From NCBI RefSeq assembly GCF_026626685.1, contig NZ_JAPNJX010000001.1:204752-268751 (forward strand): a stretch of DNA of 64,000 nt, given 5' to 3'. Of this stretch, positions 40,313 to 43,204 are shown one piece after another. Every line of letters starts with the position of its first letter. The first letter of the stretch is position 1. The notes beneath the pieces are model-generated. The model saw only the letters and a list, made by a program, of their open reading frames with translations, was not told the origin of the DNA and ran no database searches. Made by a program: the position numbers and the translations under genes. The stretch is from Nannocystis sp. SCPEA4 (GTDB lineage Bacteria; Myxococcota_A; Polyangia; Nannocystales; Nannocystaceae).

Positions 40313-43204
40313 TCAGCCGCGCTCGCTCGGGTCGAGGCCCTGGATCCCCGCCACCATCACCGCGTGCAGGCGGGGCTCGTCGATGTGGGCCGCGATCGCG
40401 TCGGCGGTGAGGTCGCGCAGGCGGACGATGTCGACCAGCGTCTTGCCCTCGGGCGTGATCGGCGGGAGCACCTGGACATCGATCTGGACATGTCGCGGGA
40501 GCCAGGTGCCGTCGTGCAGCGCGTTGCGAGTGCCCCGCAGCGCGATCGGCACCACCGGCACGCCGGTCTCGGCGGCCAGGCGGAACGCGCCGAGCTTGAA
40601 CGGCCGCAGCCCGGCCTCGCGGCTGAACGTGCCCTCCGGGAACACCACCACCGGCGCGCCCGCGCGCAGCACCTCCGCCACCGCCTCGAGCCCGGCCAGC
40701 GCCCGCTCCGCCTGCAGCCGCTCGATCAGCACGTGACCGGCCCGGCGGATCAGCGGCCCGAACGCCCGGTTGTCGCGGCACTCGCCCTTGACCACGAAGC
40801 GGATCGTGTCGGGCAGCGCCGCCAGCAGCACGAACGGGTCGAGGTAGCTGCAGTGGTTGGGCGCGAGGATACATGGCCCTTGGGGCATGTTCTCGAGGCC
40901 AGTCACGTTCGGGCGCAGGCCGATCGTCGCCATCGTCGCGCGGGCGACCTGGCGCGAGAACTTCCGCAGCGGCGCGCCCGACGGGATCAGCCGCCCGGCC
41001 GCAGTCGACGCGGCGAGCATGCCGCCGAAGGTGCCGAGGGCGAAGCCGCCGTACGCGACCTCGCCGGCGCGCCCGGCCAGCGCGCGGGCGCGGCGCGGCA
41101 GCCCGCGCAGGTACAGCCCGGCGGCCTGGCGAGCGAACGAGCCGTGGCCGCGCCCGAGCTCGCCGGCGAGGTAGAGCTTGCGCGTGTCGCCGCGGCGGAT
41201 CTTGCCGCTCGACGTCTTCGGCACCGCGCCGGGCGCCGTCAGCACCACGCGATCGGGCGGGATCCCGACCGACGCCGCGATCGCCTCGCCGATCTTCTGC
41301 TGCAGCGCCGAACGGGCGGCCGGCCGCTCCTCCTTCGTCTCGGCGACCACCACGATCGACTCGGTCCCGGCCGCCTCGTCGCGGACGGCGAACGCCGCCA
41401 CGCAGCCTTGCCGCACTCCCGCGACCGCGCCCGCCGCGGCCTCGAGCTCGTGCGGGTAGTAGTTGCGGCCGCCCTTGATGATCAGGTCCTTGACGCGACC
41501 CGAGATGAACAGCTCGCCGTTGACCATGTACCCGAGGTCGCCCGAGTCGACCCAGCCGCCCTCGAGCTTGACCTTCGCGGTCGCCTCCGGGTTGCCGTAG
41601 TAGCCCTTGAACGTCGACGGCCCGCGGAACAGGATCCGGCCCTGCTGCCGATCGGGCAGCGCCGCGCCGGCCTCGTCGGCGATCCGCACCTCGTGCTTCG
41701 GCACCGCCGCGCCGCAGCCGACGAAGTGCAGCACCTCGCCCTCGGGCGCGTCGGCGGCGGCCTGTCGCGCCTCGCCCGTCGCCTCGAAGGTCGTGCGCTC
41801 GACGCGATCGACCAGCGGTCCGCGGCCCGGCGGCGGGAACGTCACCGCCACCATGTTCTCGGCCAGGCCGTAGGCGCAGAACAGCGCCTCGCGGTGGAAG
41901 CCCGCCGGCGCCAGGTGCTCGGCGAAGCGGTCGAGCGTGGCCGGCAGGATCGGCTCGGAGCCGTTGAGCAGCGCCCGGATCTGGCCCAGCTGCAGCGGCG
42001 CGATCGCCTCGGGCGCGACCCGCTTGACGCACAGGTCGAACGCGAAGTTCGGCGCGCACGCGATCGTCCCGTGGTAGCTCGAGAACGCCTGCAGCCAGCG
42101 CTCCGGCCGGGCCAGGAACGTCACCGGCGACAGGATCACCGTGGGTGTCCCGAAGTACAGGTTCATCAGCCACCCGCCGACGAGCCCCATGTCGTGGTAG
42201 AGCGGCAGCCAGCTGACCATCACGTCGCCGGGCCGCAGCCCGCAGCCCTCGGCTGCCGCGCGGATGTTGGCGAGCACGTTGGCGTGCGTCAGCTCGACGC
42301 CCTTCGGGTCGCCGGTGCTGCCCGACGTGTACTGCAGCAGCGCCGTGTCCTCGCCGCGCAGGTCGGCCGCCACCGCGGTGTCGAGGCTGGCGTCGGCCAG
42401 CGCCTCGTCGACGTCGAGCACCTGCCCGAGCGCCGGCACCTGGTCGCGGATCAGCTCGGCGACCCGGGCCGCGCGGGCGAACGTGATCAGCACCTCGGCC
42501 TCGGCGTTGGCCAGGATCTTCGCCTCGCGCTGGATGTACTCGGCGATCCGGTCGAGGCGGAACGGCGGGTACAGCGGCACCGGCACCCCGCCGGCCAGCA
42601 GCGCGCCCATGAACGCCGCGAAGTAGCCGCGCGACGTCGGCAGCATGATCGCCACCTTGCCGCCCGGCTTGAGCCCGCGCCGCCGCAGCCCCGCCGCCAC
42701 CCGCCCGGCGTCGCGCCGCAGCGCCGCGTAGGTGATCGGCTCCTCGCGCCCGTCCTCGCGCAGCAGCATGATGTGGACCCGCCCCGGCGCGCGCGCGACG
42801 TGCCAGTCGAGCGCCTCGATCAGCGTCTGCGCCGCCGCCGGGGCCGGCGCCGGCGCGTCCGTCGGGAGAGACAGGTCCTCGCGGACATGCTCCTTCGGAC
42901 CTGTGCTCGTGGACATGTCCGAAGCGCCCTCCCCGCGGGCCTTGCGGGCCAGGGCGAGCAGCTGGCGCGGGGTGTCGGCCTCGCTCAGCGCCTCCTCGGG
43001 GAACACCACACCGAGGCGGGCCTCGAGGCGGCCGAGCAGCTCGACGCGCTCGAGGCTGCCGAGGCCGAGCTCGCGCTCGAGCGAGGCGTCGAGGCGGAGG
43101 TTGCCGAGGCCGCGCCCGTCGCCGACGGCGGAGATGAGCTCACCGACGACGGCGAGGACCGTCGCCTCCTCGATGGGGCCGGGGGCCGGGGGCGTGTCGG
43201 GCAT
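40313..43204 (-). CDS. tridomain ACP - fatty acyl-AMP ligase - lysophospholipid acyltransferase (PlsC-like) fusion
   Basis: 963 aa. There is an N-terminal PP-binding site (LGLGSLERVELL). The adenylation core has YTSGSTGDPKGVELTH, a SGDLGY region and GKIRR. The C-terminal acyltransferase has motifs NHCSYLD (HX4D) and FPEGTFS. Confidence 0.88.
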   Translation of the reverse strand: MPDTPPAPGPIEEATVLAVVGELISAVGDGRGLGNLRLDASLERELGLGSLERVELLGRLEARLGVVFPEEALSEADTPRQLLALARKARGEGASDMSTSTGPKEHVREDLSLPTDAPAPAPAAAQTLIEALDWHVARAPGRVHIMLLREDGREEPITYAALRRDAGRVAAGLRRRGLKPGGKVAIMLPTSRGYFAAFMGALLAGGVPVPLYPPFRLDRIAEYIQREAKILANAEAEVLITFARAARVAELIRDQVPALGQVLDVDEALADASLDTAVAADLRGEDTALLQYTSGSTGDPKGVELTHANVLANIRAAAEGCGLRPGDVMVSWLPLYHDMGLVGGWLMNLYFGTPTVILSPVTFLARPERWLQAFSSYHGTIACAPNFAFDLCVKRVAPEAIAPLQLGQIRALLNGSEPILPATLDRFAEHLAPAGFHREALFCAYGLAENMVAVTFPPPGRGPLVDRVERTTFEATGEARQAAADAPEGEVLHFVGCGAAVPKHEVRIADEAGAALPDRQQGRILFRGPSTFKGYYGNPEATAKVKLEGGWVDSGDLGYMVNGELFISGRVKDLIIKGGRNYYPHELEAAAGAVAGVRQGCVAAFAVRDEAAGTESIVVVAETKEERPAARSALQQKIGEAIAASVGIPPDRVVLTAPGAVPKTSSGKIRRGDTRKLYLAGELGRGHGSFARQAAGLYLRGLPRRARALAGRAGEVAYGGFALGTFGGMLAASTAAGRLIPSGAPLRKFSRQVARATMATIGLRPNVTGLENMPQGPCILAPNHCSYLDPFVLLAALPDTIRFVVKGECRDNRAFGPLIRRAGHVLIERLQAERALAGLEAVAEVLRAGAPVVVFPEGTFSREAGLRPFKLGAFRLAAETGVPVVPIALRGTRNALHDGTWLPRHVQIDVQVLPPITPEGKTLVDIVRLRDLTADAIAAHIDEPRLHAVMVAGIQGLDPSERG

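Follow-up and report, generated by a model that had tools for sequence, protein, structure and literature searches.

A widespread fusion of acyl carrier protein, fatty acyl-AMP ligase and PlsC-like acyltransferase in Nannocystis, and its possible role in the esterification of free fatty acids

Introduction

Can a single polypeptide activate a free fatty acid, load it on a carrier of its own and place it in a membrane lipid? This question is raised by a gene on the minus strand (40313..43204) of a 64,000-nucleotide stretch of DNA from Nannocystis sp. SCPEA4 (contig NZ_JAPNJX010000001.1, positions 204,752 to 268,751), the whole of which is called here the window. An earlier note, made from the sequence alone, had proposed that the gene product combines an acyl carrier protein (ACP), a fatty acyl-AMP ligase (FAAL) and a PlsC-type lysophospholipid acyltransferase, in this order and in one polypeptide. 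Profiles, alignments and the predicted fold all agree with this arrangement, and the gene turned out to be one of many of its kind. We consider it slightly better than an even bet (about 55%) that the product is a membrane-associated and self-sufficient enzyme, by which free fatty acids are esterified into membrane lipids with the help of neither coenzyme A (CoA) nor the housekeeping ACP.

Bacteria re-use free fatty acids by FadD, which produces acyl-CoA, by FakAB/PlsX, via acyl-phosphate, and by Aas or AasS, via acyl-ACP. The architecture described here is already on record, with no functional characterisation that we could find. According to one sentence of a survey from 2021, lysophospholipid acyltransferases are fused to some of the FAAL-like domains of bacteria (PMC8460268), and another survey, from 2026, mentions, also in one sentence, a FAAL clade whose members stand alone or occur together with an LPAT_AGPAT-like domain (PMC12820801). 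In a 2025 review on FAALs, neither 'phospholipid' nor 'membrane lipid' appears, and each 'acyltransferase' is the AT domain of a polyketide synthase (PKS).

Results

An intact gene encodes a carrier, a ligase and an acyltransferase

Since the GC content of the window is about 72%, the six-frame list gives long open reading frames (ORFs) on both strands between 40.3 and 43.3 kb. The minus-strand ORF 40313..43204 is an intact gene, with an ATG start and 963 codons followed by a stop in the ORF list and its translation. Its GC content is 0.94 at codon position 3 and 0.55 at position 2, which is the pattern of the real genes in the window. The overlapping plus-strand ORF 40364..43297 was rejected, its translation being Arg/Ala-rich nonsense. 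The orthologue of N. pusilla, labelled merely "AMP-binding protein", also has 963 residues and is 92% identical, while the N. radixulma NCELM protein is about 99% identical over its whole length and 100% identical in the acyltransferase segment. Both align end-to-end in one frame, as do the relatives in nearly every locus that is long enough. The single frame and the shared length rule out a frameshift or a split gene, and the complete coding sequence reads ACP, FAAL, helical hairpin and PlsC-like acyltransferase. The motifs quoted in the earlier note were all located at the expected places of the translation (LGLGSLERVELL at residues 46-57, NHCSYLD at 783-789 and FPEGTFS at 855-861), and all three domains exceeded their Pfam gathering scores. 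That note had named two outcomes as fatal to its proposal, a domain lacking profile support and a frameshift; both were looked for, and neither was seen.

The features described next are all on the minus strand. The ACP (PP-binding) domain occupies residues 10-89 (42938..43177). Pfam PF00550 matched residues 36-84 with 29.3 bits (gathering score 20.8, E 1.1e-6), and the ACP match in NCBIfam was weak (17 bits). The AlphaFold2 (AF2) model of the whole protein, with a mean predicted local distance difference test (pLDDT) score of 82.7, folds residues 10-89 into a small domain of helices at 10-27, 31-35, 50-64, 71-75 and 79-89, the third of which opens with Ser50. The codon of this serine (43055..43057), in the motif LGLGSLERVEL, is the predicted phosphopantetheine site: Ser50 occupies the position of the conserved serine of the pattern (L/I)Gx(D/H)S(L/I), at the start of helix II, and it is kept in 234 of the 235 full-length family members compared. 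The preceding residue is Gly in 130 members, including the Nannocystis protein, and Asp in 92. Around the serine the family conserves the motif (L)G(L/I)(G/D)S(L)ERVEL, which in a Paraburkholderia homologue reads DLGLDSLARTELL. The linker to the ligase (residues 90-124, 42833..42937) contains Ala/Pro- and Ser/Thr-rich stretches, and its residues 93-110 have pLDDT values below 50.

The ligase domain extends over residues 125-683 (41156..42832). The Pfam AMP-binding family matched residues 133-536 with 237 bits, accompanied by a weak match to a DIP2-like AMP C-terminal domain. The best NCBIfam model was PRK09192, a FAAL subfamily, with 428 bits, followed by the FadD32, FadD21 and FadD28 types; these top matches are all FAAL-type, and each scored below its curated cut-off (600 bits for PRK09192). 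The closest solved relatives are FAALs as well, namely 7R7E (E 3.6e-89), the E. coli FAAL 3PBK (E 4.5e-86) and FadD32. Both core motifs of the ANL superfamily are present: the (near-)invariant A3 motif YTSGSTGDPKG (residues 292-302, 42299..42331), and the A10 catalytic lysine, Lys668, in PKTSSGKIRR (codon 41201..41203), which is a lysine in 233 of the 235 members. Moreover, residues ~457-499 (41708..41836) align nearly without gaps to 3PBK at the FAAL-specific insertion; in the BLAST alignment of this region, about 34 residues facing query positions 463-521 are missing from E. coli Aas. Judged by this insertion, the ligase domain is of the FAAL type. FAALs give acyl-AMP to holo-ACP and reject CoA (PMC8460268).

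The C-terminal domain, at residues 765-940 (40385..40912), is a PlsC/AGPAT-like acyltransferase by Pfam, TIGR00530, the solved structure 5KYM and Foldseek. PF01553 matched residues 765-889 with 114 bits. When residues 690-963 were searched alone, they matched TIGR00530 (AGP_acyltrn) with 94.9 bits, the acyltransferase part of the MFS-Aas fusion model PRK08633 with 81 bits and, more weakly, models of the lyso-ornithine-lipid acyltransferase OlsA (48-50 bits, about 49, E 2.5e-13 to 6.7e-13, cut-off 300). The sole solved relative found by sequence was the Thermotoga maritima enzyme TmPlsC (5KYM, E 4e-18). Residues 700-963 were also modelled by themselves (pLDDT 86.3), and Foldseek again ranked 5KYM first (E 3e-13, TM 0.59/0.64), with glycerol-3-phosphate acyltransferases (GPATs) and PatA next, so the modelled fold is PlsC-like and closest to that of the Thermotoga enzyme. 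The catalytic HX4D block HCSYLD (40838..40855) carries His784, kept in 227 of 235 members, and Asp789, kept in 230. Block II has Arg829, which is conserved in 221 of 235 members and aligns with the arginine of the FLDR stretch of TmPlsC. Block III reads FPEGTF (residues 855-860, 40625..40642), and the aligned stretch of TmPlsC is FPEGTRS. While the Glu and Gly of this block are conserved throughout, its Phe860 is found in 196 of the 235 members. EGTF is a family-wide signature and may bear on the choice of acceptor.

Two long helices lie between the ligase and the acyltransferase core (40925..41137; residues 690-737 and 744-760 in the models), and the models and hydropathy make them a probable membrane-association motif. 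The aligned helix segment is hydrophobic in 81% of 231 members, with a median 19-residue Kyte-Doolittle value of 2.05. In the Nannocystis protein no segment attains 1.6, whereas the homologous segment does so in most relatives.

The fusion is a large and old family

The word-indexed protein search listed 120 matches, with identities from 92% down to 47%. Among these, 114 have 887-1019 residues, and the six shorter ones are fragments. Pfam found PF00550, PF00501 and PF01553 in the listed matches, PF00550 being absent in 22 rows and PF01553 in one fragment. Their names are "AMP-binding protein", "fatty-acyl-CoA synthase", "1-acyl-sn-glycerol-3-phosphate acyltransferase" and "acyl carrier protein". 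An exhaustive search against representatives of 50%-identity clusters was also performed; about 123 of the best 150 representatives are 880-1100 residues long, and nearly all of those align near end-to-end at 35-58% identity.

Genomes were scanned using the acyltransferase segment only as the query. At least 600 stretches matched, of which 586 were confirmed, and the best 80 loci were kept. They come from Nannocystis and other Myxococcota, from Acidobacteriota (Vicinamibacteria, Terriglobia and Thermoanaerobaculia), Gemmatimonadota, Nitrospirota, Methylomirabilota/Rokubacteria and Binatia, and from Beta- and Gammaproteobacteria, including Sulfuritalea, Azoarcus, Thauera, Gallionella and two Pseudomonas genomes. 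No Myxococcus was among these 80 loci. Of about 90 loci, which represent at least six phyla, nearly all keep the fusion in a single reading frame. The copies on proteobacterial plasmids and chromids are 37-47% identical to the Nannocystis protein and are again labelled "AMP-binding protein"; Paraburkholderia and Cupriavidus are among the carriers of the gene. By sequence, then, the ACP-FAAL-PlsC fusion is a large, old family with hundreds of bacterial carriers and not a local oddity, and the Nannocystis gene is an ordinary member of it.

Note that in one metagenome-assembled genome (MAG) of Acidobacteriota (locus L029) the family gene is split over two frames, 3951-4646 and 4717-6708, as a frameshift pseudogene or by an assembly error.

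The 235 members are 35-92% identical, and between 226 and 235 of them retain Ser50, the A3 motif, Lys668, the His784/Asp789 dyad and the EG of block III. Since the catalytic residues of three domains are conserved in members this divergent, the three activities are under joint selection, and the near-invariant carrier serine, A3 and A10 motifs and HX4D block fit a pathway that uses all three.

A proposed relay from free fatty acid to membrane lipid

In the reaction that we propose, the FAAL domain would adenylate a free long-chain fatty acid, and the acyl group would then move, in cis, to the enzyme's own carrier, where a phosphopantetheine arm on Ser50 would receive it. The 35-residue linker, which is of low confidence in the model, would tether the carrier domain, and the loaded carrier would swing to the C-terminal acyltransferase, kept by the helical hairpin on the cytoplasmic side of the inner membrane. 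There, His784 and Asp789 would catalyse transfer to a glycerolipid, on one of its hydroxyl groups; the likeliest acceptors are lysophospholipids and lysophosphatidic acid (LPA), between which we make no choice. Such an enzyme would have an Aas-like role, either in the recycling and repair of lipids from free fatty acid and lysolipid or in the incorporation of exogenous fatty acids. We favour the in-cis relay because it is the simplest reading that employs every conserved feature. It also has precedents in other formats: in Aas, in ElbD and in the aryl-polyene enzymes ApeH, ApeE/F and ApeD, adenylation is likewise followed by a dedicated ACP and a PF01553 acyltransferase.

The gene stands alone in most of the loci examined

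The upstream neighbour on the same strand (43284..44750) encodes a protein with TSP_3 and OmpA domains and lies at a distance of 79 nt. Downstream, a pirin gene follows after 414 nt, with a histidine kinase gene and an ArsC-like gene farther out. This OmpA/pirin/histidine kinase/ArsC arrangement is shared by six Nannocystis species and was found in none of the other ~80 loci, where the distant relatives have unrelated neighbours. The earlier note had taken the adjacency to the TSP3-OmpA gene as consistent with envelope remodelling; the adjacency is real (79-nt gap, same strand), but it carries no functional weight because the synteny is restricted to the genus Nannocystis, and for the same reason the TSP3-OmpA protein was ruled out as a functional partner.

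A GC-rich hairpin with 10-nt arms, a 4-nt loop and no T-run (40263..40286, minus strand) begins 27 nt past the stop codon and is a possible transcript end. A consensus scan called no intrinsic terminator at this position and nothing convincing around the gene. As expected for a myxobacterium of 72% GC, no promoter was returned by a sigma-70 scan around the gene.

Flanking ORFs were clustered by all-against-all BLAST, and Pfam was run on the 117 genes next to the family gene in about 62 dereplicated loci. The only neighbour family that recurred across lineages was an ATG22/UMF1-like transporter of the major facilitator superfamily (MFS; PF11700), with 6 of the 117 neighbours; every other family occurred at most twice. 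The MFS gene is directly downstream, on the plus strand, in four loci (L077:6212-7501, L026:6803-8005, L081:6675-8069 and L076:6653-7981), and upstream and divergent in two (L085:2297-3871, from Pseudomonas carbonaria, and L074:2520-4019). The downstream cases form three divergent groups (Sulfuritalea/Rhodocyclales, the Terriglobia locus L026, and L081 with L076), in each of which the stop-to-stop ORF of the transporter overlaps or abuts the 3' end of the family gene on the same strand, and between which the MFS proteins are 26-32% identical. By analogy, an MFS gene in this place seems to echo the aas-lplT pairing of E. coli. A second, fatty acyl-CoA ligase-like (FACL-like) AMP-binding gene, with an AMP-binding_C_3 domain, is near the family gene in seven loci from several phyla (L010, L040, L062, L070, L080, L081 and L083); in L010 the two genes lie at 6383-8041 and 8178-11021. 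With the exception of the MFS gene, no conserved partner was present among the 117 flanking genes, which fits a self-sufficient enzyme. The family gene behaves as a stand-alone unit.

Other observations on these loci are the following. The MFS genes beside the family gene in L081 and L076 are 82% identical, even though the bins are assigned to Terriglobia and Betaproteobacteria, respectively; one of the MAG assignments may be wrong, or there may have been horizontal transfer. The plasmid homologues of Burkholderia and Paraburkholderia (L008 and L010) have stress-type neighbours, which include genes for BON-domain, Hsp20 and universal stress proteins, P-type ATPases, kdp and ars, and which may hint at a stress-related role. 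Within the window, the histidine kinase at 36905-38860 (plus strand), with an N-terminal XylR_N/V4R sensor module and PAS domains, is syntenic with the gene across Nannocystis. About 9 kb from the gene, a beta-oxidation cluster (25040-31134, minus strand) comprises two acyl-CoA dehydrogenases, a 3-hydroxyacyl-CoA dehydrogenase, a thiolase and the ORF 28067-28867. A 1321-aa ORF (31557-35522, minus strand) has an N-terminus that looks by eye like a Ser/Thr kinase (HRDIKPAN, DFG), and its tail, about 1000 residues long and dominated by Pro, Ala, Gly and Ser, coincides with a GC peak of 0.78 at 32-34 kb. At the window edge, the VgrG-like protein encoded at 756-2888 (minus strand), which has Phage_GPD, Phage_base_V and Gp5 C-terminal domains, suggests a type VI secretion or contractile-injection locus. 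Finally, antistasin-domain proteins are encoded at 47661-48302 (minus strand) and, in two copies, in N. pusilla (L001, 1413-2267 and 2568-3200). The antistasin domain belongs to a protease-inhibitor family known mainly from leeches.

Discussion

Points against the relay and alternative readings

Several results weigh against the self-contained relay. The carrier-domain match is modest (E 1e-6), and a Gly precedes Ser50 where an Asp is usual. The acyltransferase segment stays below the TIGR00530 cut-off of 102.95 bits, and its block III lacks the arginine of EGTR, by which it differs from the PlsC-type LPA acyltransferases. In the Nannocystis protein the helix is only weakly hydrophobic (Kyte-Doolittle 1.12); should it truly span the membrane in other members, on the other hand, the membrane would separate their FAAL from their acyltransferase. 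By NCBIfam and BLAST the MFS neighbour does not resemble LplT; it occurs in only about 10% of the dereplicated loci, and the 64-kb window contains neither an ATG22-like MFS nor an LplT transporter. Moreover, our literature search found no functional study of any family member. In view of the replacement of EGTR by EGTF and the absence of an LplT-type partner, we keep the lysolipid of the earlier note as a probable acceptor.

Among the alternatives, the one that we take most seriously, while still finding it doubtful, is that the enzyme serves a dedicated biosynthesis: it would load one particular fatty acid and acylate glycerol-3-phosphate (G3P), dihydroxyacetone phosphate or LPA, at the start or at the end of the synthesis of a specialised glycerolipid, as an ElbD-like first step lacking the reductase. 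ElbD joins adenylation, ACP and AGPAT-like domains, and reductase-less ElbD-like homologues have been reported in other phyla. The best matches of the acyltransferase domain, which are LPA and G3P acyltransferases (TIGR00530, TmPlsC and GPAT), and the conserved Arg829 of block II agree with such acceptors, but the Phe in place of the EGTR arginine does not. Nor is there a reductase domain, and in no lineage does an elbB/elbE-type, AGPS or other lipid-biosynthesis gene adjoin the family gene. The carrier is not where the order reported for ElbD would have it, and none of the best 150 representatives is as long as ElbD. The atypical, family-wide EGTF would also fit an acceptor that is not a glycerolipid at all. 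Lyso-ornithine lipid, as for OlsA, or a hydroxylated envelope molecule could then be acylated to give an aminolipid or a new lipid class, and ApeD, a PF01553 enzyme, has been proposed to place an ACP-bound acyl group on a non-standard lipid anchor. The OlsA models do match the acyltransferase domain, but with scores far under their cut-off and under those of the PlsC and Aas-type models, and neither olsB-like genes nor other aminolipid genes lie close by. We regard this as improbable.

Finally, the domains might not be coupled. The ACP-FAAL part would then load a separate partner, such as a PKS, a nonribosomal peptide synthetase (NRPS) or another transferase, and the PlsC-like domain would use acyl-ACP or acyl-CoA as ordinary donors, or mainly serve as a membrane anchor. 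FAAL-ACP didomains normally serve PKS/NRPS lines, and the FACL-like gene near the family gene in seven loci could be taken in the same sense; however, no PKS or NRPS genes flank the family gene in the lineages examined, and it would be hard to explain why the three-domain fusion and the acyltransferase catalytic residues have been kept over at least six phyla. This makes uncoupled domains the least probable of the alternatives, if only slightly less so than a non-glycerolipid acceptor.

Implications

If the self-contained relay is correct, a widespread enzyme with its own carrier would be a fourth, self-contained solution for the re-use of free fatty acids. It would bear on membrane repair after phospholipase damage, on the use of exogenous fatty acids to bypass inhibitors of fatty-acid synthesis, and on the reading of genome annotations. 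A wider and more speculative proposal, which we put forward only tentatively, is that the family represents a third route, contained in a single polypeptide and common in soil and sediment phyla, by which free fatty acids reach membrane lipids with neither CoA (as with FadD) nor the housekeeping ACP (as with Aas/AasS), that EGTF marks an acceptor or product unlike those of Aas and PlsC, and that in some lineages the enzyme works with the ATG22-like MFS protein as a lipid transporter. Note that a BLAST search with ElbD would probably return the family as "ElbD homologues lacking the reductase", and such matches could inflate predictions of ether lipids in Acidobacteriota and other phyla.

Comparison with known systems

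The earlier note had likened the protein to E. coli Aas (b2836, 2-acylglycerophosphoethanolamine acyltransferase / acyl-ACP synthetase), and at the superfamily level the likeness stands. Aas also combines, in one polypeptide, a fatty-acid-adenylating ANL domain and a PF01553 acyltransferase with HX4D, and it follows the same logic, from free fatty acid to acyl-ACP to lipid without CoA. Beyond this level the likeness ends. The order in Aas is AT-AAS, with no carrier of its own, whereas that of the Nannocystis protein is ACP-FAAL-AT. Identity amounts to 24% between the adenylation domains and 27% between the acyltransferase domains, and the FAAL insertion is present only in the Nannocystis protein. 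The Aas equivalog model PRK08043 gave 34.7 bits with the acyltransferase domain alone (cut-off 886), and the whole protein reached 191.5 bits with PRK08633 (cut-off 1221) and 135 with PRK06814 (cut-off 1349), both Aas-type models. Finally, Aas is paired with LplT in E. coli, and the Nannocystis gene has no lplT neighbour.

The comparison with the ether-lipid enzyme ElbD (MXAN_1528 of Myxococcus xanthus, UniProt Q1DC43) is based on its description in the literature and proved looser than the earlier note had claimed. ElbD is likewise a multidomain protein of a myxobacterium and contains adenylation, ACP and AGPAT-like acyltransferase domains; according to a review, its ACS and ACP activities were confirmed in vitro. 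However, the order given in the papers is reductase, adenylation, thiolation and acyltransferase, so the carrier of ElbD is between the adenylation and acyltransferase domains, while that of the Nannocystis protein is N-terminal. The N-terminal fatty-acyl reductase of ElbD (NAD_binding_4) has no counterpart in the Nannocystis protein by Pfam. ElbD is encoded in the elbA-E operon, where elbB encodes a HAD hydrolase and elbE a NAD-epimerase, whereas the Nannocystis neighbours are the TSP3-OmpA, pirin, histidine kinase and ArsC-like genes.

The same three activities have been proposed to act in sequence, independently of CoA, in aryl-polyene synthesis, where ApeH is the adenylating ACP-loader, ApeE/F are the ACPs and ApeD is the PF01553 enzyme. 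By their description, these are separate proteins of a large biosynthetic cluster, with 4-hydroxybenzoate or the polyene as substrate. Among solved structures, the ligase is closest to the FAAL-ACP loaders of PKS/NRPS systems (7R7E, deposited as 'Polyketide synthase') and to the stand-alone 3PBK, and it shares the insertion with them; in the loaders, however, the carrier comes after the ligase and serves a ketosynthase or condensation domain, while in the Nannocystis protein it comes before the ligase, and a lipid acyltransferase is found downstream. TmPlsC, an LPA acyltransferase, is 25% identical to the acyltransferase domain and has in common with it the HX4D block, the block II and IV residues and the two preceding helices, but its block III is EGTR and not EGTF. 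PlsC is a stand-alone enzyme of about 240 residues that uses soluble acyl donors, whereas the Nannocystis acyltransferase is the C-terminal domain of a fusion.

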